NCBI GenBank assembly: GCA_964640125.1
Contig: CAZXGG010000001.1
Location: 13,708-77,707 of the forward strand
Reading direction: 5' to 3'
DNA: 64,000 bases
Origin: an uncultured Rikenellaceae bacterium
GTDB lineage: Bacteria; Bacteroidota; Bacteroidia; Bacteroidales; VadinHA17
Shown: in pieces, positions 6,728-27,551 of the stretch
How the letters are laid out: every line of letters begins with the position of its first letter
Position numbering within the stretch: the first letter of the stretch is position 1
Program-made: the position numbers and the translations under genes
The notes under the pieces: generated by a model
What the model saw: the letters and a program-made list of their open reading frames with translations, nothing else
What the model was told of the DNA's origin: nothing
The model's database searches: none

Positions 6728-6742
6728 AGACTATTCGAATTA

Positions 6743-8961: not shown

Positions 8962-9001
8962 TTCCCGTTTCCCGGAATTTGTTTATTTTTGTTCTGGTTT
9001 C

Positions 9002-9229: not shown

Positions 9230-9230
9230 A

Positions 9231-9385: not shown

Positions 9386-9670
9386 TCGTTAATAGTTAAA
9401 CGTTATTTGTTAATAGTCGTATACCTTTTGTGCTATTAATTCCATTTAAATAATTGATTATAAGCTAGTTATTCAAAACATTTAAGTAGGTGTCTGTCCC
9501 TATTTAATTTATTTGGGAATCCTTTTTTTGTATCCTTCTTCATCTTCGATTAATTCAATATCTTTGTTATAATCTGGTATTTATGAAGGAAAGCCTGCTC
9601 TATCCTCGATTGGATCGAGGTGCATGCCAGGTCAGTTCCCTGAAATAAATAACCTATAAATTATACGCCC

Positions 9671-11650: not shown

Positions 11651-12691
11651 CTACGATTCAATTTTCTCCAATTCTTTCCAGACCAGTGCGCTGGCGCCTA
11701 CAATGGCAGCCGTACCGGCTTTGAGTTCTGAGGGGAGAATTTTAACTTTATTGCGAAAGACCGGCAGGACATGCCGTTCCATGGAATCTTTTGTGGGTTT
11801 AAAAATCAGTTCACCAGCTGCTGCTGCACCGCCGAACAGAAAAATGGCTTCCGGGCTCAGGTGGTCAACGGTAATGGCCAGACCCCTGCCCAGCAACTCA
11901 CCGGTTATTTCAAATGCCTCCTTTGCTATTTTATCCCCTTTTACGGCTGCATTGTACACCATTTCCGAAGTCATCGAATTAAAGGGTATTCCGGCAAGTT
12001 CACTTCGGCTATCGTTATATTGTGCCAGAAGTTCATATACCGTTCGTGTAATGCCCGGTGCAGAGCAATAGGCTTCCAGGTGTCCCAATCCACCGCACCC
12101 GCATAAACGTCCTTCAGGCACCACAACAATGTGGCCACATTCCCCGGCAAAGCCATCATGGCCATAAACCAGGTCCCCGTCCACGATCAGACCACTGCCT
12201 ACTCCTGTACCGAGTGTTATCATCACAAAGTTTTTCATCCCCTTACCACCACCATATATCATTTCACCCAGTGCGGCAGCATTTGCATCATTGGTTAATT
12301 TGATGATTTCGATTTCGGGGACCTTCGCCTTAATCAGGTCTGCAAATTGAACCACTCCGACGAATGGCAGGTTGGGTGCAAGCTCAATGGTCCCCTTGTA
12401 ATAGTTACCATTCGGTGCTCCGATCCCGATACCTGCAATATCAATACCGGTTGTGCTTTTTCTGACTGTATCAATTGCCGATTTAATCTCAGTTGCAAGG
12501 GTACTTGTGTATCGTTCCAGGATCTCTTCCGATTTTTTCTGGCTTGCATCCGGATTCTCTTTCTTCTGGGGAGTGGGCAACTGGGGCTTTTTCTCATATA
12601 AAACATTGCCATCCCGGTCAACAATTCCTATGGCGGTGTTCGTTCCGCCAATGTCGATTCCTATCGCTATTTCACTCATATTTTTGATCAT
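11651..12691 (-). CDS. ROK family sugar kinase (glucokinase-like)
   Basis: GIDIGGTN, NDANAAALGE, TLGTGVGSG, GECGH...CGCGGLGHLEAY. Alternative start at 12679. Confidence 0.93.
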   Translation of the reverse strand: MIKNMSEIAIGIDIGGTNTAIGIVDRDGNVLYEKKPQLPTPQKKENPDASQKKSEEILERYTSTLATEIKSAIDTVRKSTTGIDIAGIGIGAPNGNYYKGTIELAPNLPFVGVVQFADLIKAKVPEIEIIKLTNDANAAALGEMIYGGGKGMKNFVMITLGTGVGSGLIVDGDLVYGHDGFAGECGHIVVVPEGRLCGCGGLGHLEAYCSAPGITRTVYELLAQYNDSRSELAGIPFNSMTSEMVYNAAVKGDKIAKEAFEITGELLGRGLAITVDHLSPEAIFLFGGAAAAGELIFKPTKDSMERHVLPVFRNKVKILPSELKAGTAAIVGASALVWKELEKIES

Positions 12692-12716
12692 CAGGTTTGC
12701 ATTAATAAAATACGGA

Positions 12717-14072
12717 TTATCTCATCCGGCTCCCTTTTGCTGCAAAGAAAAAGATGTAGGCATAGCAGACTGCCGGGACCAGAAATGCCCAGGTATATCC
12801 GGGGCCATCGGCAATGCTGCCCATGATAAGCGGAATGATTCCTCCACCAATAATCAGGCTGTTAATAATCCCTGATGCCGTGCTCAATTCCCCTTTATCC
12901 AGGTCTTTTACACTTAGTGAGAAAATAGTCGGGAACATGACCGAGTTGAAGAACCCGATGGATACCACGGTCCAGAGCGCAACCTGCCCGGTAGTAATTG
13001 CTGTAATGATTGCCAGAAGGGCTGCTACACCGGAAAATACCGATAGTGTACGGGTGTCACGACCGGCACCTATCTGCATGATAATGAAGTTAATCAATGC
13101 AACGATCAGGAAATATAAACCGTGTTTCCAATGCCAGTCGGTGACAAATGAACCGGCAAAAAAAGCAAGTACCAATATTCCAAGGACAAACTGGTATTTC
13201 CTGGCTGCAGTTTTTATATCCGAAAGCATAACGGCTCCAAAGAACCTGCCGATCATCGCACCACCCCAGTAGATTGATGCAAAACGGGAAGCGGCTTCGG
13301 CAGTCAGTCCCCCATTCTCAGGGATTCTGAGGTAATTGACAATTAAGCCCGCCGTACCGACTTCGGCCCCCACATAAAAGAAAATAGCCAGGGTACCCAA
13401 CAGTACATGCGGGTATCTCCAAACACTTTTTCGAATTTCCCCGGGGACTGCTGCACCAGTAATTTCCGGAAGCTTCATTGCCATGATGGCAAATGCGATC
13501 AGCAGCACCAGGATCCCCATGATAATGAATGGCATCTGTACTGTTTTTGCCGCAGATGCAGCATCCAGCATTTCTCCGGCACCTTTGAAAACAGCGACGG
13601 AAATGATCCAGGGTGCAATCATGGTTGCAACTGAATTCAATGCCTGCACCAGATTCAACCGTCCGGAAGCAGTTGTATCGGGTCCTAAAGCCGTCGCATA
13701 CGGATTGGCAGCAACCTGCAGCAATACAACGCCTGATGCAAGCACAAAAGTGGCTGCCAGAAACAGCGGATAGGACGGAATGGAGGCAGCAGGATAAAAC
13801 AGGAAACTACCCAATGCCATTAAAATCAATCCGACAATCAATGAAACTTTATACCCGATTCTTTTCACAATATAACCGCTTGGAATGGAAAGGATGGGAT
13901 AGGCAATGAAAAAGGCAGATGTAATAAACTGCGCTTCAAATTCACTCAATGTGAATACTTCCTTTACTTTGGCACTCAACGTAATAATAAACGTAGTCGC
14001 AAAGCCGAAAATAAAAAAGATAGCTCCGATAACGGAAAGTCCCAAGGTGTTGGTGGATTTCTTGTATTCCAT
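12717..14072 (-). CDS. Sugar MFS transporter (FucP/GluP glucose/galactose family)
   Basis: LQVAANPY, RLNLVQALNS, YVGAEV, YWGGAMIGRF and NSVMFPTIFSL FucP-family motifs. Confidence 0.93.
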   Translation of the reverse strand: MEYKKSTNTLGLSVIGAIFFIFGFATTFIITLSAKVKEVFTLSEFEAQFITSAFFIAYPILSIPSGYIVKRIGYKVSLIVGLILMALGSFLFYPAASIPSYPLFLAATFVLASGVVLLQVAANPYATALGPDTTASGRLNLVQALNSVATMIAPWIISVAVFKGAGEMLDAASAAKTVQMPFIIMGILVLLIAFAIMAMKLPEITGAAVPGEIRKSVWRYPHVLLGTLAIFFYVGAEVGTAGLIVNYLRIPENGGLTAEAASRFASIYWGGAMIGRFFGAVMLSDIKTAARKYQFVLGILVLAFFAGSFVTDWHWKHGLYFLIVALINFIIMQIGAGRDTRTLSVFSGVAALLAIITAITTGQVALWTVVSIGFFNSVMFPTIFSLSVKDLDKGELSTASGIINSLIIGGGIIPLIMGSIADGPGYTWAFLVPAVCYAYIFFFAAKGSRMR

Positions 14073-14215: not shown

Positions 14216-15583
14216 TTATTCCAGTTCGTACTTTTTAATTTTTGCAAGCAAATTTACCCGTGATATTCCCAGGATATCAGCAGCTTTAGTCCGGTTTCCA
14301 CCAGTAAATTTCAGTACTTTTCTTATGTGTTCCTTTTCGATCTCCTGTATTGACTGGGGTTTGAAATCATTATTAAGTTCTTCATCACAGCATTGCTGTG
14401 CATGAAAGAAATGAGGGAGTGATGTTCGCCTTAATTCCGTTCCTGTCTCAATAATAATTGCACTGTTGATGATATTCATCAATTCTCTCACATTCCCTGG
14501 GAATGGATAGTTTTTCAGGCAGTTCATTAAGGAGGGACAAATCTTTTTGACATTTTTTTGATATTTCTCGTTGAATCTTTCAAGAAAAAAATTGGCAAGT
14601 AATGGAATATCTTCTAGTCGTTCGCGCAGGGGTGGAAGGTTAATGGAATTGATATTAAGCCGGAAAAAGAGGTCTTTTCTGAAATTTCCATTTTGTATCT
14701 CCTCAAAAAGGTTTTTATTGGTCGCTGCAATGATCCGTACGTCTACTTTAATATTTTTTGTAGAGCCCAGTTTATAAAACTCCTCTTCCTGTAAAACCCG
14801 CAGCAATTTCACCTGGATGGGAAGTGATAATTCTCCGATCTCATCCAGGAATAAGGTTCCACCATTTGCCTCTTCGATAAAACCGGTTTTGTCTTTATCG
14901 GCACCGGTAAATGCGCCCTTCTCGTGTCCAAAAAATTCAGAGGAAAAAAGCTCATGGGCAAATGTGCCGGCGTTTACAGCGATAAATTGTTTATCTTTTC
15001 TTTTACTGATTTCATGAATGGCTTTTGCTATCAGTTCCTTTCCGGACCCGCTCTCTCCCCAGATCAGGACACTATTATCCGTCACGGCAAACTTCTCTAC
15101 ATACCGAAATATCCGGATCATCTCTTCATTATTGGTAATGATATTCTCAAAAACCCGTTTGTGTTTAAGATCATCCCTTGAAGCAACTCCTGATGCACCG
15201 GGTTTTCTCTGTTCCAGCTGAACATTTTTCAAGGCATTGTGAATCGTATCGAGTAATTTCTCCTCATCAATGGGTTTGAGCATATAGTCAAAGGTCCCAC
15301 ATTTCATCGCTGATATTGCCAGGTCCACATCTTCCACGCCGGTTAATACGATCGTAACGATACTGATGTTGTTCTCATTAATATACTTCAGGATATCAAG
15401 ACCTGATACGTGAGGCATATCCATATCCAGCAAGAGAACATCAAATTTCTCCTTTTTCAGCAGATCAAATGCATTCCGGCTATCCTGAAGTGTTTTGGGT
15501 TCAAAACCTCCCGATTGAAGGAGAAAAATATTCAGAAAATTCAGGATTGCCAGATTGTCGTCGATTACGAGTACCTTTGTCAT
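14216..15583 (-). CDS. Sigma-54-dependent response regulator (NtrC/AtoC family)
   Basis: REC domain (VIDD, LLDMDMP, KP), Walker A GESGSGKE, GAFTGA, FLDEIGE, C-terminal Fis-type HTH (GNRTKAADILGISR). Overlaps the kinase stop (ATGA). Confidence 0.95.
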   Translation of the reverse strand: MTKVLVIDDNLAILNFLNIFLLQSGGFEPKTLQDSRNAFDLLKKEKFDVLLLDMDMPHVSGLDILKYINENNISIVTIVLTGVEDVDLAISAMKCGTFDYMLKPIDEEKLLDTIHNALKNVQLEQRKPGASGVASRDDLKHKRVFENIITNNEEMIRIFRYVEKFAVTDNSVLIWGESGSGKELIAKAIHEISKRKDKQFIAVNAGTFAHELFSSEFFGHEKGAFTGADKDKTGFIEEANGGTLFLDEIGELSLPIQVKLLRVLQEEEFYKLGSTKNIKVDVRIIAATNKNLFEEIQNGNFRKDLFFRLNINSINLPPLRERLEDIPLLANFFLERFNEKYQKNVKKICPSLMNCLKNYPFPGNVRELMNIINSAIIIETGTELRRTSLPHFFHAQQCCDEELNNDFKPQSIQEIEKEHIRKVLKFTGGNRTKAADILGISRVNLLAKIKKYELE

Positions 15584-17463
15584 TTTTTATCATTTAATTT
15601 AACCGGGATGCGGATAGTAAAAGTTGTACCTGATCCCAGTGTGGAGTCCACCTCAATTTTTCCATGATGATCTTTTATGATACCATATGAAATGGATAAA
15701 CCTAATCCTGATCCACCTTTATCTCGTTTGGTGGTAAAGAATGGATCAAAGATATTCCTTTTGGTTTTCTCATCCATTCCTTTTCCGTTGTCTGTTATGT
15801 TTATGACTACTTCTTCACTGGATTGGTCATAATCTGTTTTAATGGTGATCAATCCAACCCCATTCTCTATAGCCTGCGAGGCATTGATAATCATATTCAT
15901 CAACACCTGCTCCAGTTTCGGAATGTTTCCGTTGAATTCAGGGACATTGGGATTAAGATCGAATGTGACCTGAGCTTGTTTCTTTATGTGTTTTTGTGTA
16001 AAGGTCAGGTGAGTTTTTATCAAATGATTGATATCCACCATGTCCGACAGGGTTTCTTCATCTTTTCGTGCAAAATTCCTCAAGTCGAGTACAATTTGTT
16101 TTGTCCGGTTTGCTCCTTCAATCATATCACCTATAAGGATGGAAATATTCTCTTTAAAAAGATCATAGGGTAACCGTGCGATTTTTTCATTGGGGTGCCC
16201 GTCAAAATAGTGATCCAGTATGGGAAAAATATCATTGAAGGCTTCCTGAATGATCTTGAGGTTCCCAAGGATAAATGTATTGGGATTATTGATTTCATGA
16301 GCAACGCCTGCTACCAGTTTTCCCAGCGAAGCAAGCTTATAGGATTGAATGAGCTGTGATTCCAGTTGTTTGTTCAGTGTAATATCCCTGCACACCTCAA
16401 GTACTCTTTCAACCTCCCCCTCCTTATCAAAAATAGGATATGACCTCATTAAGAAATACTTACCATCCACTGATTTTTCCATCATGCTGTTTTTCCCTTT
16501 CCCGAAAGTAACAACTGCATTACAATTAGGGCATTTATGATCAGCATTAAACAATTTTTTATAGCATTTGCCGGAATTACCAATTTCATCCTTGTTGGAC
16601 ATGATGATGTTATAATCCGGATCAATTACGATAATCCTGTCAGCAATCGCCTCAAAGAATGTCTTGAAGTTTTCAGAACCCTGTTGAAGTTGTTCTGTTA
16701 GTTTCACCAGGGTTTCATTTTTTGAAATGAGAATTTTCTGCTGTTCTTCAAGTGCGTTCTTCTTTTCATTGTTTTCGATGGCTCGGGCTATCTTGCCAGA
16801 AATTTCCCGGATAAGAGTCTCCTCTTCCTCCAGGAACCGAACCTTTTTTATCAGGTGTACATGAATGTTACCTCTCTTCTTCTTGTTGAGTTTAATATCA
16901 ACATTCAACTCATTGTATCGTTTATATTTCAACGCATGTACATCCCCAAACATATTCCCATCCTGTTCAATTACAACTTTGGTGTGTTTTGGATGCTGAA
17001 ATCCTTCTTTTATATGCTGGGTACATTTTTCAATGGCTTCACTAAGGGATTTACTGGATTCCAGAGTATGGCTTATTGAATAGAGGCATTCCAGTTCTTT
17101 AATTCTTGCTTCCAGTTCCCGTTCAATTTTCGAGAATTGCAGCACTTTATCTTTAACAGAAAAAATGATATAATCACTGTTGGTATGGCTCACCGGGAAA
17201 AAAAGAAATACATTCCCCAGCTTTTTTGAAACGAACGTCCTGGGTAACTGGCTTTCTCTTGCATTTTCCAGCGTTTCTTTCATCTGGTATTCTTCACTTT
17301 TTTCAGCATATTCCCTTTCTTGAAATTCTTCAAAATGGATCCCGGCATCTTCGAATGATTTCTTTATCTTATCCCCGGCAAAGACCACCTTGTTGTCTCT
17401 TTCAAAGACAATGACGTTCTTAAACAACTCTATGACTAATTTAAATTGAGGCAGGTATTCCAT
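15580..17463 (-). CDS. Cytoplasmic PAS-domain sensor histidine kinase (NtrB-like)
   Basis: H-box GVAHEINNP, N-box QVLMNMIINA, G1 DNGKGM, F-box FDPFFTTK, G2 GSGLGL. PAS domain contains CY-x9-CPNC. No TM segments. Confidence 0.93.
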   Translation of the reverse strand: MEYLPQFKLVIELFKNVIVFERDNKVVFAGDKIKKSFEDAGIHFEEFQEREYAEKSEEYQMKETLENARESQLPRTFVSKKLGNVFLFFPVSHTNSDYIIFSVKDKVLQFSKIERELEARIKELECLYSISHTLESSKSLSEAIEKCTQHIKEGFQHPKHTKVVIEQDGNMFGDVHALKYKRYNELNVDIKLNKKKRGNIHVHLIKKVRFLEEEETLIREISGKIARAIENNEKKNALEEQQKILISKNETLVKLTEQLQQGSENFKTFFEAIADRIIVIDPDYNIIMSNKDEIGNSGKCYKKLFNADHKCPNCNAVVTFGKGKNSMMEKSVDGKYFLMRSYPIFDKEGEVERVLEVCRDITLNKQLESQLIQSYKLASLGKLVAGVAHEINNPNTFILGNLKIIQEAFNDIFPILDHYFDGHPNEKIARLPYDLFKENISILIGDMIEGANRTKQIVLDLRNFARKDEETLSDMVDINHLIKTHLTFTQKHIKKQAQVTFDLNPNVPEFNGNIPKLEQVLMNMIINASQAIENGVGLITIKTDYDQSSEEVVINITDNGKGMDEKTKRNIFDPFFTTKRDKGGSGLGLSISYGIIKDHHGKIEVDSTLGSGTTFTIRIPVKLNDKK

Positions 17464-17469
17464 GACACA

Positions 17470-20400
17470 TTAGTGAAAAAGGTTACTTTTTATATTCTTT
17501 CTGAAAAACATTTCTGAATAACTAAATGAGGTTTTTAATGGATTAATTGTTTTTAAATCGTAATCAATGATGGCAAAATTCGGCTTTTTATTTCGTGTAA
17601 AAAACTTCCCCAGAATTACTGGATTGACAAGGACACTGTTTGGTTTGCCTTCCCGATACATCCGATTAATTGTGCACATCTCTGAAAAAATCGCTTTGAT
17701 AGACTCATACCCGAATCCACCGTTAAAACAGGAAGCCAGCTTCGAAATCGTTTCCCATCCTTCATTCATGTTGTTGGGATAAATAACCGGTATTGATTCC
17801 TGTAGTCTTCTTTCGCAATTTGTATATGTCCCACGATCTTCTATAAAGGATGGTGCAGGAAGAACAACTTCAGCTCGCCTCGCAGTATCGGTGTAAAATG
17901 AATCGTGGACCAGCAGAAATTCCATGTTCTTAAACCATCTGGCAGTATCAAGGCATGCAAGTGGATCCTCACCAAAAATAAGTACTGCCTTAATTTTGCC
18001 TTCCATCAGTTCCTTTTTGATGTCCGTTGGAAGAAAAACCCGTTCAAGGTCGGTATTCCACATTTGCTCAATTCTTTTAATCTCCTCCCGTTCAAAAAAT
18101 TTGACATACCCCGGCAGGTGGTCGGGGTCAACACCCATATCGAGATGTCCTGCTGAGTTCGAATAATCTCGCAACAACATCAACCCATTATTTCTCCTTG
18201 AAAAGCGGTTCGTTAACAAAAGGTAGTTCCCAATGGCTTTCAAGTCGTTTTTCGTTTTTTCCTTCCGGGAATCCAGATTATAAATAAAAATGATGTTCGA
18301 TGAAGGATTATTGAGGAGATCGACCAATGTATCAAATTTTTCTTCATCAATTTCTGCTATGTCACAGGCCTCTTCTTTCCGAAACATGGCGATCATTTTT
18401 TTCAATTCCTCCAGCCCTTCAACCGTTGAACGAATCGATGTTTCATCATACTGATTTCTTTCTATCACTTGTTGAATGATCGCATTCATCAGCACTGTAT
18501 TGGTTCCTTTTCTGCTATCAATCCACAGGTCGGCAAATTTGGTAAGTTTTATTTCGGAGGAATTGATCAGGATCAGTTTTGTCCCATTCTTCTGTGCTTC
18601 TTTGATTTTCAGTTCCATAATCAGGTTTTCTTCCGACAGATCACCATTCACCACAACCAGCAGGTCGGCTTTCTGAAAATCATCCATGGTTACCGTTGAC
18701 GAGGTTATACCCAGCGAGTCATCGAGATCGATCAGGGCTGTTTCGTTTACGAGCGTATCGATACTGGCAATGTTATTGGTCCCTAACCCAGAACGACCGA
18801 ACTTCTGCAGCAGATAGAGTTGTTCATTGGGTAATTTAGGGGAGCAAAAGAGTGCAACCGACTGAGGACCATGTTGATCGACTATTTCTTTGATCCTTTT
18901 TGCAGCATGGTCAATGGCTTTATCCGAATCAACCTGTTCTGGTTTTCCATTTTTTCTTATCGTTGCACTTTGTACTTTATTACCATTCATCAGGTAGCGG
19001 TGACCAAACCGTCCCTTCATACACAAATAACCTTTATTGTGCGAATCTTTAATCCCCTCTGTTGAGTTTGATACATAAACGATGTCATCATTGATCACCT
19101 TGTAGTTTATTTTGCATCCGATGGAACAAAAATTACAGATGGTTTCTCTATTTTCTTTCGGGAGTGTACCCAACACTTTAAACGGGAATTTTTCTGTAAT
19201 TGCACCAGTAGGGCATGTATCGATACAGTTACCACAGGATATGCAATTTGTATCAAGCAGTGGCTTTTCCATAGCAGGTTTAACAATAGCTTTGAATCCC
19301 CGGTAGACAAATCCCATTGAAGCCACTTTCAATATTTCCGAGCAGGTTCTGGTACATCTTCCACAATTGATGCATTTATTTGGATCCAGCAGAATGAATG
19401 GATGTCGAGTATCGACTTCATATTTCCTTGTCTCTCCCAAATAATCGGAAATATCCAGGTCAAATTCATCGGCTAATTTTCTTAATGCACAATCATAATA
19501 TTCCGAACATCCACACTCCAGGCAACGTTCCGATTCGATACAGGATTGTTCATCAGTGAGCCCTGTTTCCACTTCCCTGAATGTCTTTTTTCGGATGGCA
19601 AGGGGTATTTCCGGCATGGTAATCCGGTCACTTTTCGTAATTCGTTCCAGTTCCCGTGAAGGGATTTCACCGAAGTAGTGTTTAAAACTCAGGTATTTGC
19701 CATTTCCCCTGCCGGTTTGACCGTTTTTAAGGTAGTCATCTATTGAACATGCTGCCTGTTTGCCCTGTGCGATAGCGCTAATTGCTGTATAAGCACCCGT
19801 AACAACATCTCCACCGGCAAAAACTCCGGGGATTGATGTTTCCATTGTTTTTTGATCAACAACAACGCTGCCCCAGCTCTCCAGCTTCAGGTCTTTTTCT
19901 CCTGTAAGAGAGGATGACTCGATCTGTTGTCCGATGGCACTGATCAGGAAGTCACAATCCAGAATGAATTCAGATCCTGGAATGGGCACTGGTTTGGGTC
20001 TTTCTCCTGGTCCGGCATCTTCCAGTTTCATTTTCAGGCATTCGATGGCTTTCAATGTTTTCCCATCGCGTATGATCGATTTGGGAAGGGTAAGGAAATT
20101 GATTTCAACTCCCTCATTTTGTGCAGCTTCAATTTCTTCGCTATGGGCAGGCATTTCGTTCCGGCTTCTCCGGTATATAATTTTCACCTCATCAACGCCA
20201 CATCTCAATGCGGTCCTGGCTGCATCGATTGCTGTATTTCCACCACCCACGATTGCCACTTTCCCCTGGATTGCAGGAACACCTTTGAGGATCACTTCCC
20301 GCAAAAAATCGATTCCCGGGATGACACCTTCTGTATCGTTTTCTCCCTCCACTCTCATTTTGCTTGCCCGGTGTGCTCCAACAGCGATGAATAGTGCATT

Positions 20401-21243
20401 AAAACCAGCATCCTGAAGGGATTTGATACTGATCTGTTTGCCAAATTCCACCCCCGTTTGTACCTTGATTCCAAGTCCGGTTATCCAATTAATCTCGGCA
20501 TCCAGAATTTTTTTTGGCAACCGGTATTCGGGGATACCATATCTCAGCATACCTCCCAGTTCCGGCAGTTTTTCAAAGATTGTAACCTCGTACCCTTCCA
20601 GGATCAGGTAATAGGCACAGGTTAATCCACCGGGACCTCCACCGATCACAGCAACCTTCTGGTTCTTCTTCTCTTTCAGGGCAGGGGTCCATTTGTTTTC
20701 TCCTTCCAGATCGGCAATATATCGTTTCAAATAGTTAATACCCACTGGTTGATCCACAATTGCCCTGCGACAGGCTGCTTCACAATCCCTGACGCATATT
20801 CTTCCAATGGAGAGTGGAAGGGGATTATTTTCTTTCACCAGCCGTATTGCGTCACGGTATTTCCTGGCAGAAATCAGAGCAATATAACCCTGTGCATCCA
20901 CATGGGCCGGACAATTGTCAATGCATGGTCCAATGCAGTCGGCATAGTGGTTTGAAAAGAGAAGTTCCAGTGCTGTTTTTCTCGAACTTCTGACCCGTTC
21001 GTTGTTTGTATATATAACCATGTTATCCTGTATCATGGTGGAACAAGAGGGAATCAGTTTTTGTATTCCTTCCACTTCAACCACACAGATGAAACAGGAT
21101 GTATCCGGTTCAATCCGTTTATCATGACACAATGTTGGGATCCTGTCAATCTTATGATCATGGATAACCTCGAGAATTGTTTTCCCTGATTCAGTAGTGA
21201 TTTGCTGGCCGTTAATGGTTACTTTAATTATTCCCATGTCCAT
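17470..21243 (-). CDS. Large NuoG/FdhF-like Fe-S flavoprotein with embedded GltD-type FAD/NADPH module (StnC/BfuA-like); no catalytic Cys/Sec
   Basis: [2Fe-2S] (C..CFIC..C); HYADC; GltD module (PCIDNCP, GGGPGG, GGGNTAID, YRR); 2x[4Fe-4S] (CINCGRC..C, CISCGNC..CP); CNFCSIGC cluster; molybdopterin-oxidoreductase fold with NNIASIDT where FdhF has NNVDxxxRxC/UH. Confidence 0.88.
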   Translation of the reverse strand: MDMGIIKVTINGQQITTESGKTILEVIHDHKIDRIPTLCHDKRIEPDTSCFICVVEVEGIQKLIPSCSTMIQDNMVIYTNNERVRSSRKTALELLFSNHYADCIGPCIDNCPAHVDAQGYIALISARKYRDAIRLVKENNPLPLSIGRICVRDCEAACRRAIVDQPVGINYLKRYIADLEGENKWTPALKEKKNQKVAVIGGGPGGLTCAYYLILEGYEVTIFEKLPELGGMLRYGIPEYRLPKKILDAEINWITGLGIKVQTGVEFGKQISIKSLQDAGFNALFIAVGAHRASKMRVEGENDTEGVIPGIDFLREVILKGVPAIQGKVAIVGGGNTAIDAARTALRCGVDEVKIIYRRSRNEMPAHSEEIEAAQNEGVEINFLTLPKSIIRDGKTLKAIECLKMKLEDAGPGERPKPVPIPGSEFILDCDFLISAIGQQIESSSLTGEKDLKLESWGSVVVDQKTMETSIPGVFAGGDVVTGAYTAISAIAQGKQAACSIDDYLKNGQTGRGNGKYLSFKHYFGEIPSRELERITKSDRITMPEIPLAIRKKTFREVETGLTDEQSCIESERCLECGCSEYYDCALRKLADEFDLDISDYLGETRKYEVDTRHPFILLDPNKCINCGRCTRTCSEILKVASMGFVYRGFKAIVKPAMEKPLLDTNCISCGNCIDTCPTGAITEKFPFKVLGTLPKENRETICNFCSIGCKINYKVINDDIVYVSNSTEGIKDSHNKGYLCMKGRFGHRYLMNGNKVQSATIRKNGKPEQVDSDKAIDHAAKRIKEIVDQHGPQSVALFCSPKLPNEQLYLLQKFGRSGLGTNNIASIDTLVNETALIDLDDSLGITSSTVTMDDFQKADLLVVVNGDLSEENLIMELKIKEAQKNGTKLILINSSEIKLTKFADLWIDSRKGTNTVLMNAIIQQVIERNQYDETSIRSTVEGLEELKKMIAMFRKEEACDIAEIDEEKFDTLVDLLNNPSSNIIFIYNLDSRKEKTKNDLKAIGNYLLLTNRFSRRNNGLMLLRDYSNSAGHLDMGVDPDHLPGYVKFFEREEIKRIEQMWNTDLERVFLPTDIKKELMEGKIKAVLIFGEDPLACLDTARWFKNMEFLLVHDSFYTDTARRAEVVLPAPSFIEDRGTYTNCERRLQESIPVIYPNNMNEGWETISKLASCFNGGFGYESIKAIFSEMCTINRMYREGKPNSVLVNPVILGKFFTRNKKPNFAIIDYDLKTINPLKTSFSYSEMFFRKNIKSNLFH

Positions 21244-21254
21244 GGATCAACAGG

Positions 21255-23021
21255 TTAATATTTCTCCACTGCTTCAAATTTGCACACATCATAACATTGT
21301 CCACACTTGATACAGGCTTCCTGATCAATTGTATGGAGTTCTTTTTTTTCTCCTGAAATACAATTAACAGGACATTTAATGGCACACAGGGTACAACCTG
21401 TACATTTTTCCGGAATGATGGAATAGGTAAGCAGTGCCGCACAGCTATGGGCAGGACATCTTTTTTCATGAATGTGTGCTTCATATTCTTCCCTGAAATA
21501 CTTGATCGTTGTCAATACCGGGTTTGGTGCAGTTTGTCCCAGTCCACATAAGCTGCTGTTTTTTATCTTCTGTGCTAACTCCTCAAGCAATTCAATGTCA
21601 TGTTCTTTTCCTTCTCCTGCTGTTATTCTCTCGAGGATTTCAAGCATTCTTTTTGTCCCGATCCTACAAAAGGTACATTTACCGCACGATTCGTTTTGAG
21701 TAAAGTTGAGAAAGAATTTTGCCAGGTCGACCATGCAGGTAGTGTTATCGAGTACGATTAAACCACCCGAACCCATGATGGCACCTGTCTGGGTAATTTC
21801 GTCATAATCGATTTTCAAATCTCCCATGGAAGCCGGAATGCATCCTCCGGATGGGCCTCCCATCTGTACTGCTTTAAACTCTCTTCCCTCTTTTACTCCT
21901 CCCCCAATCTCATAAACAATTTCATTAATGGTTATTCCCATGGGTACTTCAGCCAGACCACTTCTCGCGATTTTCCCTGCCAGGGCAAACACTTTTGTTC
22001 CCTTGCTTTTTTTCGTGCCCAGAGCGGCATATTGATCAGCTCCATTACGAATGATCCAGGGTATATTGGCGTAAGTCTCAACATTATTGATGTTGGTTGG
22101 CTTACCCCATAATCCTTTCACTGCCGGAAAAGGAGGTCTCAATCTTGGAACGCCTCTTTTGCCTTCAATGGAGGCAATTAACGCGGTTTCCTCACCACAC
22201 ACAAAGGCACCTGCCCCTTCTTTTATTTTTATCCTGAAATCGAGATCCGAACCAAATATACCTTCACCAAGAAATCTTTTCTTTTCACATTGCTCTATTG
22301 CCAGTCTTAATCGTTTAATGGCAAGAGGGTATTCAGCACGGACATACACATAGGCTTCATCCGAACCGATCGCATAGGCAGCAATCATCATCCCTTCCAA
22401 TACAGCATGGGGATCACCTTCCAGAACGCTTCTGTCCATAAATGCTCCCGGATCTCCTTCATCCGCATTGCAAATGATGTATTTTTTGTCTCCTTCCGAT
22501 TCTCGTGCAAACTTCCATTTCAGCCCCGTGGGAAATCCGCCACCACCCCGTCCGCGCAAACCTGAATTCATTACCATTGTAATCACCTCATCGGGGGTAA
22601 GCTCTTCGATAATCTGCTGAACAGCCTGATATCCGTCTCTATCAATATATTCCTCAATGGATGTTGGATCGATCACGCCACAGTTTCTAAGTACTATCCG
22701 ATTTTGTTTATTGAAAAAATCCTCCTGAAGTGACAGTGTGTTGCTTCTAACGATCCACTCTTCAACCGGCCGTTTATTCACAATATGCTGGTCAACAATT
22801 CGTTCGACTCTATCCGCTGTAACCTTGGCATATAAAAAACTCTCCTTCTCGTTTACCACTTCCACCAGTACCTCTTCATAACACATTCCCATGCACCCTG
22901 TCTCCTTTACAGGAATATCCAGATTTTTTTCCCGTACGGTTTTTTTCAGTGCTTTGTATACCAGGTCTCCTCCCGCTGAAATACCACAAGTACCCAGACC
23001 AACTTTTATTTCCATGTTCAC
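21255..23021 (-). CDS. nuoF: NADH-binding flavoprotein subunit, NuoF/HydB-like (StnB/BfuB-like)
   Basis: N-terminal thioredoxin-like ferredoxin (GTCG, GCMGMC); GRGGGGFP, CNADEGDPGAFMDR, GAGAFVCGEE, GGPSGG, ESCGKCTFCR; C-terminal 2x[4Fe-4S]. Confidence 0.93.
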   Translation of the reverse strand: MNMEIKVGLGTCGISAGGDLVYKALKKTVREKNLDIPVKETGCMGMCYEEVLVEVVNEKESFLYAKVTADRVERIVDQHIVNKRPVEEWIVRSNTLSLQEDFFNKQNRIVLRNCGVIDPTSIEEYIDRDGYQAVQQIIEELTPDEVITMVMNSGLRGRGGGGFPTGLKWKFARESEGDKKYIICNADEGDPGAFMDRSVLEGDPHAVLEGMMIAAYAIGSDEAYVYVRAEYPLAIKRLRLAIEQCEKKRFLGEGIFGSDLDFRIKIKEGAGAFVCGEETALIASIEGKRGVPRLRPPFPAVKGLWGKPTNINNVETYANIPWIIRNGADQYAALGTKKSKGTKVFALAGKIARSGLAEVPMGITINEIVYEIGGGVKEGREFKAVQMGGPSGGCIPASMGDLKIDYDEITQTGAIMGSGGLIVLDNTTCMVDLAKFFLNFTQNESCGKCTFCRIGTKRMLEILERITAGEGKEHDIELLEELAQKIKNSSLCGLGQTAPNPVLTTIKYFREEYEAHIHEKRCPAHSCAALLTYSIIPEKCTGCTLCAIKCPVNCISGEKKELHTIDQEACIKCGQCYDVCKFEAVEKY

Positions 23022-23028
23022 TATTCTT

Positions 23029-23526
23029 CTATTCGGACGTCTTATTTTTGTATTTCCTTACTACCTTTTTCGTCCTGTCAGGTGTAAGGTTGCCATAGGT
23101 CTCTTCATTAATCATGATAACCGGAGCCAACGAACAACAACCCAGACAGGCTACGGACTGAAGTGTGAATAGCCCGTCGTCAGTAGTTTCATTTACGGAA
23201 ATACCCAGTTCATTCTTGAGTGTATTAAGAATATTTTTTGCTCCATTGACATGACAGGCTGTTCCTTCACAAATTTTTATGACATGCTTGCCCAATGGTT
23301 TCAACCGGAACTGAGCATAGAAAGTAATGACGCCGTAAATCTCGGCAGACGGTATACCAACCACTTCACTAACGTAATGGATCACCTTTTCCGGAATGTA
23401 ACCATAAGAATCCTGAGCTGATTGTAACAATGGTATTAACGCTCCAGTCTGATCCTTTTTTGTGATCAGGTCAATTTTGAAATTTTTAATTTGCGGTCCT
23501 CTCTCCCGGATATCCCTCTCAGCCAT
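23029..23526 (-). CDS. nuoE: [2Fe-2S] subunit, NuoE/HydC-like (StnA/BfuC-like)
   Basis: CEGTACH and ACLGCCSLAP motifs. Start placed at ATG 23526 (preceded by AAGGA); the longer ORF from 23589 runs through a hairpin. Confidence 0.92.
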   Translation of the reverse strand: MAERDIRERGPQIKNFKIDLITKKDQTGALIPLLQSAQDSYGYIPEKVIHYVSEVVGIPSAEIYGVITFYAQFRLKPLGKHVIKICEGTACHVNGAKNILNTLKNELGISVNETTDDGLFTLQSVACLGCCSLAPVIMINEETYGNLTPDRTKKVVRKYKNKTSE

Positions 23527-23548
23527 TGGTTTCCTTTTGTTAAAATAT

Positions 23549-23590
23549 AAAACATGATATGGATACCCGAAAACCGGGCACCATACCATG
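23549..23590 (-). terminator. Strong hairpin plus U-tract between the regulator gene and the nuoE-like gene (terminator/attenuator or stability hairpin)
   Basis: Minus strand CATGGTATGG-TGCCCG-GTTTT-CGGGTA-T-CCATATCATG followed by TTTT. Confidence 0.6.
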
Positions 23591-23695
23591 ATCTGTTATT
23601 TACTACGAATTGAGTCTCTTATGAAATGCTTAGCTTTTGAGCGGTTAAATATAATTGGGACAAAGAATAATGATAATGATAAAACTCATCTATTT

Positions 23696-24682
23696 TTACA
23701 TCTCAAACATGTTTACCACCGGGAATTTTTTAACTTTTAAGACACCATCCAAACCAATGATCTTATTTTCAACAAACCGGTCAACCTCAGTGAAGTAACT
23801 TCCATGAACCATCAGTACCAGGTTATATTTACCTGTTGTAACATCACAGAAGGCTACGTTTTCTTCCGAATGTAATACCGAGTAAACCTTCTCAAGATGA
23901 TCATTTTCCAATGCGATAAGAACATAGGAACATACACGCTGGCTAAAATTCCGTTCTTTGGCTTTATCATCAGAAAGTGTGATTTCAGCATGCTCAATGA
24001 TCTCCCTGATTTTTTCATTTTCTGGTATGGTACCAATCGTCATAAAATCAACTTCATCAACACCATCCATTTTCTTCACTCTGTTTTCAAGTATCTCTTT
24101 ACATTCTCCTATGGTATCAGCATGAACCAGCAGTATGATGTCGTATTCTCCCTGAGTGGCATCGCAATAGAGTACGTTGTCCATGAAATAGAGCTCCCTG
24201 TAGATGGAAAAGAAATTTGCATCCTTATTGATCTTCAACATCATAAAAGCCGATTTTGATAGGGCTTCTTTTTCCTTTTCCGGAACCTCAACCTCTTGTG
24301 ATGGTTCAGGCAGATCCAGAACTTCATTGAATTTATTGGTCAAATCGTCAATGGTGAATGGTTTTTCCAGTAACAGGCTTGCTTCAAGAGTTTCAATTTC
24401 ATTTCTTACTTTATCGGCATAACCTGTAATGAAGATGACCGGTGTATCCGGATATTTCGATTTGATCATCTTTCCCAGTTCAACACCATTGATGTCTGGC
24501 AATAAAATATCAAGCACGATGGAATCCAATGGAATCTCCTCCTGTTTAAGTGATTCCAGCTTTTGCAGGGCAGACAAGCCCGTATCACAATTTTCAACGG
24601 CAATCCCTCTTTGGTTTAATCCTAAGGTCAGGCTTCTTCTCAAGGATGATTCATCATCCACTAATAAAATTCGCTTTTCCAT
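23696..24682 (-). CDS. Response regulator: receiver domain plus two tandem Lrp/AsnC ligand-binding domains, no HTH
   Basis: REC (LLVDDE, VLDILLPD, ITGY, EKPF), then two ~75-aa repeats (YCDATQGEYDIILLV / FCDVTTGKYNLVLMV). GGAGG 8 nt upstream supports ATG 24682; alternative start 24697. Confidence 0.82.
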   Translation of the reverse strand: MEKRILLVDDESSLRRSLTLGLNQRGIAVENCDTGLSALQKLESLKQEEIPLDSIVLDILLPDINGVELGKMIKSKYPDTPVIFITGYADKVRNEIETLEASLLLEKPFTIDDLTNKFNEVLDLPEPSQEVEVPEKEKEALSKSAFMMLKINKDANFFSIYRELYFMDNVLYCDATQGEYDIILLVHADTIGECKEILENRVKKMDGVDEVDFMTIGTIPENEKIREIIEHAEITLSDDKAKERNFSQRVCSYVLIALENDHLEKVYSVLHSEENVAFCDVTTGKYNLVLMVHGSYFTEVDRFVENKIIGLDGVLKVKKFPVVNMFEM

Positions 24683-24748
24683 TGTTAATTCCTCCATAAA
24701 TTTTAATGATTATTTTTTCTTGTTGAGATCCTTTTTTGACACTTCTCT

Positions 24749-24765
24749 ATCAACCCACATGCCAA
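24749..24765 (-). promoter_or_regulatory. Candidate sigma-54 (-24/-12) promoter for the redox operon
   Basis: Minus strand TTGGCATGTGGGTTGAT: GG-N10-GA with correct spacing, -12 GA instead of GC. The operon encodes a GAFTGA activator. Confidence 0.55.
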
Positions 24766-24830
24766 ACCTTATAATATGTTGATATTCTGTGCATTATAAA
24801 TTTTTCATTATAAAATCAGCCGATCACTTC

Positions 24831-24903
24831 TGGAAAAAAAATTTACAGTAAAATCATAAGCGTCTCTTTTTGAGTAAGATACAAACTGATAAAAAAGTTA
24901 ACA
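24831..24903. promoter_or_regulatory. Candidate enhancer (UAS) sites for the sigma-54 activator
   Basis: Two 17-bp TG-(A/T-rich)-ACA boxes, TGGAAAAAAAATTTACA (24831-24847) and TGATAAAAAAGTTAACA (24887-24903), about 65-140 bp upstream of the -24 element. Confidence 0.35.
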
Positions 24904-25012
24904 CTTTACACCGGTTTGCACATTCCCTTTCGGTTTTAACATTCTCTCCTTCCTTCTTTTTGCAGTGTTATATAGTTTTCACTACCTTCAAAAATCACTA
25001 ATTCTGTACTCT

Positions 25013-27316
25013 ATGAATGCTTTAAAAAAACACCTTCCGGAGGTCCTGTTTATTGCAGCCATAATTCTCATTTTCTTTTTATCCTTCATTTTATGCTCTC
25101 CTCCTGCGATGGTTCCTTCCGGTGCACCTGAGGATCAATTTTCGGCCGAGAGGGCATTCTCTCATACCGTTCAGATTGCCCGGGCACCTCATTGTCTTGG
25201 AACAGCTGAACATACGAGGATTAAAGAATACATTCAAAACGAGCTTCTGAACCTCGGACTGGAATATGGGGAGCAAGATACGACTGCTGTTTATGATCAA
25301 TCTGGTGTGAGGGCCGGTTACGTTTCCAATCTTTATGGGATATTGAAGGGAAACGGTACCGGGAAAAAGGCGGTTCTGTTTCTCGGGCATTACGATTCGT
25401 GTCCGCATACACCGGGTGCAGCCGATGATGGTTCGGCTGTTGTATCCATGTTAGAAGCGGCGAGGGCTTTAATAAACAGCGGCCCATTCGATAATGATAT
25501 CATCTTTCTTTTTACCGATGGTGAAGAATCCGGATTATTTGGAGCAAAAGTTTTTACCGAAGAACATCCGCTAATTGAAACCATTGGAGTCGTTATCAAC
25601 ATTGAAGCAAGGGGGTCCCGTGGCCCTGCCCTTGCATACGAATTCAATGAAAACAACGGGTGGATCATCCGGGAACTGAACAGGGCTATGCCCAGACTGT
25701 ACGCTGGTTCAATATTTTATGAGATCTATAAACGCATGCCCAATAATACCGATTTTACCATGTTTCGCAGGGCTGGTTTATCCGGGGTTAACATGGCTTT
25801 CATAGACGATTATGTGAACTACCATAGCATGACGGATTCACCGGAAAACCTCAGTCTGAAAAGCTTGCAACACCATGGCGATTTCATTATGGCCAGTGCT
25901 CGCCACTTTGGAAACATTCCCCTCGAAAACACGAAATCAGAAGATGTTATTTTTTTCAATTGGATCGGATCTTCTATGATCATCTATTCTGCCAGATTGA
26001 GTCTATTGTTGATTGTTATTGTCATGGTGCTCGCAATAATCTTTTTCTTTTTGGGTTTCAGAAAGCGCCAGCTCCGGTGGGGACGTGTATTGTTAGGATC
26101 ATTGCTCTTCATTCTAACCCTGACATTTATCCTTTTTATTTCATGGCTGTTGTTACTGGGAATAAAAAAGGGTTATCCCCACTACAATCATTTTTATGAT
26201 TTGAATTTTTACAACGTTAAATACTATTTCTTGACTTTTTCGGCTTTATCTCTTGTCTTTTTTTCGCTGGTTTATGGGCTCTTACAAAAACGTTTCAGGG
26301 TTTTGGAGCTTTATTCTGGTATTCTTATGTTCAACATTATCCTGCTGTTTTTTATCCACTTTCTTATTCCAACAGCATCCTATCTTGCAGTAGTTCCATT
26401 GTTATTCCTACTTGCCGGAGGAATTATTACGGTTTTGAAAGATCTGTCATTTGAAAACAGGAAATCATTTTTCTTTTTGATTCATCTGATCGCTATTTTA
26501 CCGATCCTTGGGTTGTATGTACCGTCCATCAATTTGTTTTATACTGCCCTGGGACTGGAGTTGATTTTTGCCGGATTGATCCTGTTGACAATTCTCTGGG
26601 GATATTTAGTTATTCCCATTTGCCTGGTAACCAAAAAACGAGTCTGGATCTTTCCATTGATTGCCCTGGTGATTTCCGGGACGGGTTTTCTAATGGCTCA
26701 CCTCCATTCGAAACCCGCTCCTGAAAGACCGTTACAAACCAGTTTAAATTATTACTTCGACAGTGACAGCAGTCGTGCCTTGTGGGTATCGGAATTTCTT
26801 GAAACGGATGAATGGAACAGTCAATTCTTCCAGAATGGGATAAGGGAACCGTTAACCGAGATTTATCCTCATGCCGACAGGCTCCGTTTAAAAAGTCCTG
26901 CCCCGGTTGTTTCCCTGGCTCTTCCTGAAATGGAGATATCTTCCGATACGGTTATTGAAAACCGGCGTTATATTGAGCTCACCATTACCACTCAAAGGGG
27001 AGCTGCATTTTGTGAGGCCTACTTTCATAAAAATTCCAAGCTGGTTGTTACCAGTGTAAATAATCGGCAGGTAGGTGCTGATACATACAAAAATTGGACA
27101 GGGGAGTATTGCGAATTGGTATATCACGGGTTACATGCCCATCCACTCCATTTATCCTTCAGCTGCACCGGGGATGAACCATTGGAGATGTTTATCATTG
27201 AAAGGAAATTTAATATTCGAGAGATTGAGGGTTTTGATCCGATGCAGGAATGGGTCATTCCCATTACAGGGTATAACAGTTACCAGGAGATCATAAAGAA
27301 AAGCTGGAGGTTTTAA
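25013..27316 (+). CDS. M28 family membrane metallopeptidase (ERMP1/vacuolar membrane protease-like)
   Basis: FSAERA, GHYDS, GAADDG, DGEE, NIEARG, PNNTDF and YHSMTD, followed by a multi-TM region. ATG 25013 preferred over GTG 24965. Confidence 0.92.
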   Translation: MNALKKHLPEVLFIAAIILIFFLSFILCSPPAMVPSGAPEDQFSAERAFSHTVQIARAPHCLGTAEHTRIKEYIQNELLNLGLEYGEQDTTAVYDQSGVRAGYVSNLYGILKGNGTGKKAVLFLGHYDSCPHTPGAADDGSAVVSMLEAARALINSGPFDNDIIFLFTDGEESGLFGAKVFTEEHPLIETIGVVINIEARGSRGPALAYEFNENNGWIIRELNRAMPRLYAGSIFYEIYKRMPNNTDFTMFRRAGLSGVNMAFIDDYVNYHSMTDSPENLSLKSLQHHGDFIMASARHFGNIPLENTKSEDVIFFNWIGSSMIIYSARLSLLLIVIVMVLAIIFFFLGFRKRQLRWGRVLLGSLLFILTLTFILFISWLLLLGIKKGYPHYNHFYDLNFYNVKYYFLTFSALSLVFFSLVYGLLQKRFRVLELYSGILMFNIILLFFIHFLIPTASYLAVVPLLFLLAGGIITVLKDLSFENRKSFFFLIHLIAILPILGLYVPSINLFYTALGLELIFAGLILLTILWGYLVIPICLVTKKRVWIFPLIALVISGTGFLMAHLHSKPAPERPLQTSLNYYFDSDSSRALWVSEFLETDEWNSQFFQNGIREPLTEIYPHADRLRLKSPAPVVSLALPEMEISSDTVIENRRYIELTITTQRGAAFCEAYFHKNSKLVVTSVNNRQVGADTYKNWTGEYCELVYHGLHAHPLHLSFSCTGDEPLEMFIIERKFNIREIEGFDPMQEWVIPITGYNSYQEIIKKSWRF

Positions 27317-27486
27317 CCAGCATCCCTGTTTCCCATGGCAATGTTATAATCGGTTCCTTCGGTTGTAAAAACCATTTCACTAAAACTGAGTTCCATGTCT
27401 CCTTTGGAGATTCCTTCTTCCTGTTCCTGTGCAAAGGTAAAGGACACAAAAAGTACAAAAATCAAAACAATAATACCTTTTTTCAT
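27313..27486 (-). pseudogene. 57-aa signal-peptide ORF, probably the truncated N-terminus of an exported (outer-membrane beta-barrel-like) protein
   Basis: Manual translation: MKKGIIVLIFVLFVSFTFAQEQEEGISKGDMELSFSEMVFTTEGTDYNIAMGNRDAG*. Clean Sec signal with A|Q cleavage. Its stop overlaps the M28 stop (TTAA). Confidence 0.55.
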
Positions 27487-27551
27487 GAAAATAAATAGTT
27501 AAATTAGTAGCTAATGTGAAAGCATATTATTTTTTAATACCAAAAACACCG

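Follow-up and report, generated by a model that had tools for sequence, protein, structure and literature searches.

Nfn- and Stn-type transhydrogenases set the balance of the NADPH, NADH and ferredoxin pools in anaerobes, and the open-access papers searched state nothing on how cells decide when to make them. In the present work a stretch of 64,000 nucleotides (nt) from an uncultured Rikenellaceae bacterium (assembly GCA_964640125.1, contig CAZXGG010000001.1, positions 13,708 to 77,707 of the forward strand; in the following called the window) was analyzed with respect to six consecutive genes on its minus strand. With a probability of roughly 0.6 we read these genes as a sigma-54-dependent operon for an electron-bifurcating transhydrogenase of the Nfn-Bfu family and its own signalling proteins, among which a response regulator built from a receiver and two Lrp/AsnC-type ligand-binding (RAM) domains, referred to as REC-RAM-RAM, likely serves as phosphoryl sink.

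The closest described relatives of the enzyme are NfnABC of Caldicellulosiruptor saccharolyticus (9bov/9bp5) and StnABC of Sporomusa ovata (8oh5/8oh9), which consist of the same three kinds of subunit. As far as the parts of the reports considered here go, their large subunit has three parts, the bifurcating core is formed by the NuoF/NuoE-like pair and the formate-dehydrogenase-like domain is free of pterin (PMC10482914, PMC11829005); StnC comprises 1172 amino acids (aa) (PMC10482914), NfnA has about 130 kDa (PMC11829005) and the genes of S. ovata follow the order stnA-B-C (PMC7483475). The archaeal Nfn-Bfu of Thermococcus sibiricus belongs to the same family as the window enzyme; in the archaeal form the large subunit is shorter and its C-terminal domain only partial (PMC10482914, PMC9304861). 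The Nso complex of T. litoralis was described as similar to Stn (PMC7483475), and Nfn-Bfu was noted earlier in Bacteroidetes (PMC9304861). The window enzyme shares with NfnABC and StnABC the large subunit composed of a [2Fe-2S] N-terminal domain, an NfnL/GltD-like FAD-NADPH domain and a pterin-less NuoG/Fdh-like remnant, the NuoF-like subunit with its C-terminal 2x[4Fe-4S] domain and the NuoE-like [2Fe-2S] subunit. Its genes (NuoE-like, NuoF-like, large subunit) follow the order of S. ovata stnABC, and its large subunit is about 80 residues longer (1257 versus 1178 and 1172 aa). Unlike StnABC and NfnABC as described, the window operon adds a kinase, an activator and REC-RAM-RAM; in the part of the S. 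ovata Stn paper considered here the word "regulator" occurs zero times (PMC7483475).

Like NtrB/NtrC- and AtoS/AtoC-type systems, the locus combines a HisKA/HATPase kinase with a REC-AAA+-HTH_8 activator bearing GAFTGA, and it has a -24/-12 promoter preceded by 6-N5-6 dyads. The window kinase and activator are not orthologues of AtoS, AtoC or NtrC, their NCBIfam scores lying far under the equivalog cut-offs, and unlike in those systems the sensor residues 1-240 are without a Pfam family and the operon encodes a second receiver with RAM domains. Lrp/AsnC and stand-alone RAM proteins have in common with REC-RAM-RAM the RAM domain, each predicted as beta-alpha-beta-beta-alpha-beta, but the window protein carries a tandem RAM pair behind a receiver and has no helix-turn-helix (HTH). 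An earlier note on this DNA had presented the locus as the strongest candidate for a new system in the window and knew of no description of the arrangement of enzyme and regulators. In the open-access papers searched, no description was found of regulators tied to Stn/Nfn-Bfu, although some may be listed among the Bfu gene clusters tabulated in the supplement of PMC9304861, and none of a REC-RAM regulator architecture; both the circuit built into the operon and the REC-RAM-RAM regulator thus appear to be undescribed. The enzyme is a further member of a family already known, Bacteroidetes included. The new element is the regulatory wiring.

Results

Gene organization

As the earlier note had claimed, all six co-oriented genes were found as open reading frames (ORFs) on the minus strand between 14216 and 24697, with the corresponding domains identified by Pfam. 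The series begins with REC-RAM-RAM (24697..23696, 333 aa) and proceeds through the NuoE-like [2Fe-2S] subunit (StnA/NfnC/BfuC; 23589..23029, 186 aa), the NuoF-like FMN/NADH subunit with C-terminal 2x[4Fe-4S] (StnB/NfnB/BfuB; 23021..21255, 588 aa) and the large subunit (StnC/NfnA/BfuA; 21243..17470, 1257 aa) to a cytoplasmic sensor histidine kinase with PAS-like, GAF-like, coiled-coil, Cys-bearing PAS, DHp and CA segments (17463..15580, 627 aa) and an NtrC-type sigma-54 enhancer-binding response regulator (REC-AAA+-HTH_8; 15583..14216, 455 aa). Downstream of nuoE the genes are spaced by 7, 11 and 6 nt, followed by a 4-nt overlap of the kinase and activator genes, which agrees with the gaps of 11 base pairs (bp) or less reported before. 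Among the sequencing runs listed, no RNA run containing the stretch appeared.

The called starts of the first two ORFs are probably too early. Homologues of REC-RAM-RAM begin with MEKR or MQKR, matching M6 of the window protein, and a GGAGGA lies 8 nt ahead of that ATG at 24682, the probable true start. For the NuoE-like protein M22 at 23526 is the probable start, because homologous ORFs comprise 167-182 aa and the alignment begins at about residue 20-30. Consequently, the spacing between the REC-RAM-RAM gene and nuoE amounts to 106 nt as called and to 169 nt with M22. The region separating the REC-RAM-RAM gene from the probable nuoE start contains a hairpin (window 23554-23589, minus strand) whose stem is about 16 bp long; it is followed by GUUUUAUAUUUU, with a U-rich run reaching to about 23540. 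The hairpin is kept in the three same-genus loci with an altered loop, and other lineages have only 20-130 nt at this place. As an attenuator or partial terminator it could uncouple the REC-RAM-RAM gene from the genes that follow; the RNA fold of the whole intergenic region was no better than that of shuffles (z -1.32), so that the local hairpin alone remains.

The transhydrogenase

Pfam analysis assigned 2Fe-2S_thioredx to the NuoE-like protein and Complex1_51K, NADH_4Fe-4S and C-terminal Fer4/Fer4_7 (residues 532-586) to the NuoF-like protein, the latter representing the BfuB-type C-terminal 2x[4Fe-4S] domain. In the large subunit Fer2_4 (6-81), Fer4_20 (105-184), Pyr_redox_2 (196-494) and Fer4_Nqo3 (615-683) are followed by Molybdop_Fe4S4 and Molybdopterin, with a GltD/NfnL-like FAD-NADPH domain as an insertion that separates the N-terminal [2Fe-2S] from the NuoG-type clusters. 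The GxGxxG FAD and NADPH motifs, the FMN loop and the cluster cysteines are legible in the subunit sequences.

For each of the three subunits solved bifurcating transhydrogenases were the top structure matches. The large subunit matched 9bov_A (1178 aa, E 6e-250, spanning residues 4-1040), 8oh5_C (1172 aa, 2e-215) and 9n5u_A (963 aa, 3e-179), the NuoF-like subunit 9bov_B (7.6e-264, spanning residues 3-585), 9n5u_B (5e-261) and 8oh5_B (3e-255), and the NuoE-like subunit 9n5u_C (6e-54), 9bov_C (1.5e-51) and 8oh5_A (3e-44). The chains 9bov_A and 8oh5_C were tied to the published enzymes by chain lengths agreeing with the reported subunit sizes; 9n5u_A, named NfnA, we take to be the archaeal enzyme. 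By homology, the assignment as an Nfn-Bfu transhydrogenase (StnABC/NfnABC-type, BfuABC type 1) is supported, in line with the Stn/Bfu family proposed in the earlier note. Three cysteines were counted by eye in the N-terminal domain of the NuoF-like subunit; by this reading of the sequence the site would be nearer to the Zn-type site described for C. saccharolyticus (PMC11829005) than to a 4-Cys [2Fe-2S] site. Furthermore, the genome encodes pyruvate:ferredoxin oxidoreductase and RnfC with scores above the cut-offs, and a pool of reduced ferredoxin is therefore plausible.

An enzyme of the same structural family might perform another physiological reaction, such as NAD(P)H-dependent reduction of sulfur or polysulfide, or a non-bifurcating NADPH:ferredoxin or NADH:NADP+ activity. 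The activity of the window enzyme is read from homology, the Thermococcus Nso complex, first reported for sulfur/polysulfide reduction, is highly similar to Stn according to the cited part of Kremp et al. (PMC7483475), and the Fdh-like domain in the window is less decayed than that of the solved enzymes. Nevertheless, such a reaction is improbable: every cofactor module of the bifurcating core is present, the BfuB C-terminal cluster domain included, and the assayed members from S. ovata, T. sibiricus and C. saccharolyticus all bifurcate, as far as the cited parts of the reports go (PMC7483475, PMC9304861, PMC11829005).

A second alternative, that the large subunit belongs to an NAD(P)-linked formate dehydrogenase with Mo/W-bisPGD, had been named in the earlier note as an outcome that would speak against its reading and is suggested by the Fdh-alpha model TIGR01591, which matches residues 701-1198, and by solved formate dehydrogenases, which are found with E of about 1e-60. 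In an alignment of residues 692-1257 to YjgC and the CO2 reductase FdhF, however, V832-N833 occupy the position of the Mo-ligand Cys/Sec-His, and the alignment ends near residue 1196, equivalent to target positions 763/985 and 506/743. The match to TIGR01591 covers model positions 1-503 of 672 and the pterin cap domain PF01568 was not found in the large subunit by Pfam. Judged from these residues and domains, the Fdh-like domain is a degenerate, pterin-free and catalytically dead remnant and the large subunit is not a formate dehydrogenase; the probability of this alternative is practically negligible. According to the cited parts of the reports, the Mo ligand and the cap domain are likewise absent from the C. 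saccharolyticus and S. ovata enzymes (PMC11829005, PMC10482914). An FdsABG-type NAD-linked formate dehydrogenase was rejected as candidate on the same grounds, namely V832-N833 at the ligand position, the absence of PF01568 and the partial TIGR01591 match.

Further NuoF-like genes occur in the genome on contigs C101, C13 and C134 and may belong to other bifurcating or diaphorase complexes. On C101 a NuoF-like gene is accompanied, within 7 kb, by ORFs of NuoG/Fdh-like (862 aa) and GltD-like (489 aa) type, and on C134 a 1091-aa ORF matches rnfC/NuoF-type and GltD-type queries alike.

Distribution of the gene unit

Homologues of the large subunit were sought among 40 relatives, in which the full-length ones form two groups. 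In the first, comprising three genomes of the same genus (G002, G003, G004; large subunit 90-96%) and one of another genus of the family (G022; 58%), the kinase and activator genes adjoin the large-subunit gene, except that the contig of G004 ends before them; REC-RAM-RAM lies upstream in G002, G003 and G004, where the contig reaches. The second group is taken up in the Discussion.

When 400 other genomes of the order were searched with the RAM half, one contained REC-RAM-RAM; among 301 genomes from a second class of the phylum it was found in 8. A phylum-wide search with the whole protein, scoring five candidates per genome, yielded at least 3 of 400. Scanning contigs with the whole REC-RAM-RAM alignment returned mostly generic receivers; among the 80 matches listed, one was, judged from its matched residues and E-value, a full-length relative, located in a metagenome-assembled genome of Candidatus Deferrimicrobium (L023) from another phylum. 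These searches together with the three same-genus genomes provide 13 other genomes (1 + 8 + 3 + 1). Directly downstream of the REC-RAM-RAM gene a NuoE-like gene was present in all 13, and the five downstream genes followed in order in 10, the remaining 3 running off their contigs. The Deferrimicrobium locus (L023, 9953-17282) displays the same six-gene order with trimmed parts: the NuoF-like subunit has 448 aa, the kinase 366 aa, and the large subunit, without the Fdh-like domain, is with 678 aa shorter still than the archaeal one. In its kinase a hydrophobic N-terminus stands in place of PAS/GAF, and TGTAA-N7-TTACA-like dyads lie upstream.

In analogy, metagenomes were scanned with a RAM-only alignment. 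The 80 loci returned are partly redundant (L118/L181, L162/L163, L126 = L104, L140 = L106) and are not 80 independent cases. A NuoE-like gene came next in 54 of the 59 loci with at least 700 nt downstream, and all five downstream genes appeared in order in 19 of the 20 loci with at least 9.5 kb downstream. Unlinked regulatory genes in other genomes had been named in the earlier note as an outcome that would speak against its reading; linkage to the enzyme was observed instead, as the 13/13 genomes and 54/59 metagenome loci with the NuoE-like gene indicate.

For comparison of the enzymes a NuoF tree was calculated with FastTree from 48 sequences, loci without a near-complete NuoF being left out. 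The 41 rows from six-gene or contig-cut loci all fall to the same side of a 99%-supported branch, and the five unlinked enzymes of the same order group in a clade of their own with 100% support; L023 and L190 sit on long branches and their placement is unreliable. As the regulator-linked rows split off at the 99% branch, the regulators travel with one enzyme clade.

Upstream region

A sigma-54 type -24/-12 element, TGGCATGTGGGTTGA (24764..24750, minus strand), begins 67 nt ahead of the ATG at 24697. In 12 of 14 genome-derived loci the REC-RAM start is preceded by the strict pattern TGG[CT]A[CT]-N5-[CT]TG[CA], in which both -12 forms were admitted after seeing the window, slightly favouring the count; it stands 4-84 nt before the called starts, several of which are probably too early. 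It was likewise found in 38 of 56 unique metagenome loci (300 nt upstream of the estimated start), two further loci showing loose matches, and the canonical TTGC at -12 was read in 30 of these 40 metagenome sites. The DNA around the element is otherwise not alignable between loci. The whole assembly (3.84 Mb) contains 215 sites of the strict pattern, both strands counted, corresponding to about 0.009 per 330 nt. Consequently, the element in the window is taken as real because of its conservation upstream in other loci and not because of its own score, and the -24/-12 candidate pointed out before was found at its site and is conserved.

Two candidate enhancer dyads of 17 bp lie further upstream on the minus strand. 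The distal one, UAS1 (TGTTAACTTTTTTATCA, 24903..24887), has three mismatches to TGTAAA-N5-TTTACA and is located 56 bp upstream of the proximal one, UAS2 (TGTAAATTTTTTTTCCA, 24847..24831), which has one mismatch and stands 83 nt upstream of -24. With up to two mismatches, 16 such dyads were counted in 12 upstream regions of 400 nt versus 1.08 in dinucleotide shuffles, the highest count among 300 shuffles being 4. Paired dyads start 56 bp apart, at approximately 77-85 and 133-141 nt before the -24 element, in the window and five genome-derived loci (L015 of the same genus, L103, L104, L106 and L107) as well as in 21 of 40 promoter-bearing metagenome loci, as read from the listed distances. In the whole assembly only three sigma-54-like sites, that of the window operon included, have such a dyad 40-220 nt upstream. 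The activator encoded in the operon itself may bind UAS1 and UAS2.

The promoter also bears on a further alternative, in which the regulators are mere neighbours controlling other genes and the enzyme genes are under an ordinary housekeeping promoter. An AT-rich stretch with sigma-70-like hexamers lies upstream, and the window element by itself does not exceed chance (41 matches with two mismatches in the window versus 46.8 expected). Against the sigma-54 reading itself count the -12 of the window, which reads TTGA instead of TTGC, a minority form (9 of 40 sites), and the 16 of 56 metagenome loci in which the motif as written is missing. Against mere neighbourhood stand the gene order kept across classes and into another phylum, gaps of 4-11 nt or overlap, and a conserved promoter with dyads within otherwise unconserved intergenic DNA, so that we regard this alternative as very improbable.

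Two observations concern related sites elsewhere. On contig C53 of the same assembly (G000) a sigma-54-like site, TGGCATCCCACTTGCA, near 15235 (plus strand) is preceded by two TGTAAC-N5-GTTACA-like dyads and adjoins another Sigma54_activat gene (C53:14149-14643, minus strand). In the metagenome loci L174, L175 and L176, whose REC-RAM-RAM homologues are 39-42% identical, a canonical TGGCAC-N5-TTGCT element is located about 50-56 nt upstream of the REC-RAM-RAM gene. L174 and L176 contain no enzyme, kinase or activator gene nearby, L174 having a flavodoxin-like gene, a 4Fe-4S protein and an MFS transporter downstream, and L175 is too short downstream.

Signalling proteins

The 333-aa REC-RAM-RAM protein contains Response_reg and two AsnC_trans_reg (RAM) stretches, and no HTH or other DNA-binding domain was detected in it by Pfam. 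In an alignment of 20 sequences D14, D15, D63 and K112 are invariant and T91 is nearly so; judged from these residues the phospho-acceptor pocket is complete. A Tyr-Cys-Asp motif is conserved in each of the two RAM domains. The structural model (mean predicted local distance difference test score, pLDDT, 73.5) consists of the receiver and two beta-alpha-beta-beta-alpha-beta units with disordered linkers between them. A fold search with this model gave listed matches headed by receiver domains and did not inform on the RAM pair; among solved sequences, archaeal stand-alone RAM proteins come nearest to this pair (2zbc, E 1.6e-5). More than 700 database proteins match REC-RAM-RAM at E < 1e-5; the best 120 are all full-length with 46-98% identity, and the closest homologues bear the source names Ignavibacteriales and Bacteroidota. 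Identity as an Lrp/AsnC transcription factor was rejected, as the receiver is N-terminal, an HTH is absent and two RAM domains follow behind; for the same reason the protein is merely a carrier of the Lrp/AsnC ligand-binding domain. Of the former designation "REC-2xLrp regulator" the receiver and the two ligand-binding domains are borne out.

In the 627-aa kinase Pfam identified HisKA and HATPase_c, a sub-threshold PAS_4 (E 2e-4) and no family in residues 1-240. The H-box is legible, and since a hydrophobic segment is absent the kinase is taken to be cytoplasmic and soluble. In its predicted model (15 orthologues, pLDDT 81.8) a PAS-like domain spans residues 4-103 and, after a helix, a GAF-like domain spans residues 140-204; a coiled coil of 60 residues follows, and then a PAS domain at 276-360. 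Foldseek returned generic PAS/GAF sensors for the sensor model with low TM-scores, which serve to name the folds, and ESM Atlas gave GAF/PAS clusters at 0.93 for residues 1-375, regarded as a lead only. With respect to the earlier label "PAS kinase", the kinase part is secured by HisKA/HATPase_c, whereas the PAS part consists of the weak Pfam hit and the predicted fold. At least 90% of the 15 orthologues retain C300, C311 and C314 (C-x10-C-x2-C) of the last PAS domain, and C358 is invariant among these orthologues. It is a reasonable guess that this Cys-bearing PAS domain forms a metal or Fe-S redox site. The Deferrimicrobium kinase is without the entire domain.

The 455-aa activator comprises Response_reg, Sigma54_activat, AAA_lid_14 and HTH_8 with legible Walker A and GAFTGA motifs. 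NCBIfam provided no equivalog-level name for any of the three regulators, the best models being AtoS, AtoC and NtrC, and the AtoC score was 418.8 versus a cut-off of 714. The genome encodes rpoN (421 bits, above the cut-off) and contains 15 full-scoring matches to Sigma54_activat.

The flanks of the six genes are conserved within the genus only: upstream, divergent genes for M28 and M20 peptidases (24965-29093, plus strand), and downstream an MFS transporter and a ROK kinase (11651-14072, minus strand).

Discussion

The anatomy of the locus, the enzyme family, the conserved linkage and the conserved promoter architecture emerge directly from the present analysis, and a scheme for the regulation can be derived from anatomy and conservation. 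By homology, the large subunit would exchange hydride with NADP(H) at the FAD of its GltD-like domain, electrons would run via Fe-S clusters to the NuoF/NuoE-like core, and the FMN with its neighbouring clusters would couple NAD+/NADH with ferredoxin according to 2 NADPH + NAD+ + 2 Fd(ox) <-> 2 NADP+ + NADH + 2 Fd(red). The soluble PAS/GAF kinase would read an intracellular cue, possibly redox or metal via the three conserved cysteines of the last PAS domain, and phosphorylate the NtrC-type activator, which, seated on the two dyads of 17 bp that precede the -24/-12 element by about 80 and 137 bp, would turn on the whole operon. With the activator gene inside the induced operon, positive autoregulation would result.

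REC-RAM-RAM would be a second receiver, gated by a metabolite: it would compete for phosphoryl groups or drain them, the output being tuned by a small molecule bound to the RAM domains. An amino acid is the obvious guess for this ligand, because NADPH demand follows biosynthesis, and the circuit may thus integrate redox and amino-acid cues, as the earlier note had suggested. Genomic context bearing on an amino-acid signal is found at L190, where NfnA-like and NfnB-like genes (5517-9479) stand ahead of REC-RAM-RAM and a glutamate dehydrogenase gene is nearby, and at L104 (7241-8620), L107 (15862-17109) and L111 (2418-3794), which have NfnB/GltD-like genes beside the module. A classical NfnAB pair may here be placed next to a Bfu-type enzyme.

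Besides the points already raised for the promoter, several findings weigh against this reading. A clade of the same order (G010, G032, G019, G033, G035 and G006, corresponding to loci L017-L022; large subunit 37%), which constitutes the second group of full-length homologues, possesses NuoE-NuoF-large without the three regulators, an absence that covers about 8 kb around at an 80-bit threshold. The Fdh-like domain alone scores about 1e-62 versus true formate dehydrogenases, compared with 3e-42 and 1e-29 versus the NfnA/StnC remnants, and because of these better scores its history may differ from that of the NfnA/StnC remnants. C358 of the kinase is not kept in L108 and L111 in a wider comparison. 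The dyad consensus was derived by eye from sequences that were later counted, which renders the enrichment, but not the fixed spacing, partly circular, and with 15 activators in the genome the assignment of the dyads to the operon's own activator stays a matter of judgement. Finally, REC-RAM-RAM homologues occur without enzyme genes in 5 of the 59 testable metagenome loci (L127, L139, L173, L174 and L176), those of L174, L176 and L139 (39-45% identical) being followed by unrelated genes for MFS transporters, a flavodoxin-like protein, a 4Fe-4S protein and unknowns, and in L190 REC-RAM-RAM and the three enzyme genes are followed by an IS200-like transposase with no kinase or activator gene downstream. 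As an observation in its own right, L021 contains a 1375-aa ORF (1115-5242) with 37% identity to the kinase over the best aligned segment; some 400 nt separate its end from the NuoE-like gene.

It is common for receivers that lack an output domain to serve as phosphate sinks or connectors. The main rival to such a role is that REC-RAM-RAM acts on the enzyme itself as a phospho- and metabolite-gated accessory subunit or brake of the bifurcating complex, because its gene hugs nuoE, standing immediately before it in the genomes and metagenome loci counted above, and stays with the enzyme genes in L190 even though no kinase or activator follows. Lacking a DNA-binding domain, REC-RAM-RAM moreover needs a protein partner. 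The homologues in L174, L176 and L139 with no enzyme gene nearby and the frequency of output-less sinks and connectors argue against direct action, to which we concede a minority chance of some weight; the sink or connector role is preferred since homologues occur away from the enzyme genes too. The more specific version, in which REC-RAM-RAM represents a new class of response regulator and is a detachable fourth subunit whose phosphorylation and bound metabolite gate electron flow between the NADPH, NADH and ferredoxin pools, is rather doubtful. If true, one kinase would control the redox-pool balance post-translationally and, via the sigma-54 branch, transcriptionally.

The locus constitutes a compact, widely conserved unit, found in sediment Bacteroidota and at least one other phylum, in which one soluble kinase and two receivers are combined with one enzyme and a single promoter carrying two dyads. 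This unit lets one ask which intracellular signals control a bifurcating enzyme. If the ligand of REC-RAM-RAM is an amino acid, the module would link biosynthetic NADPH demand to supply.

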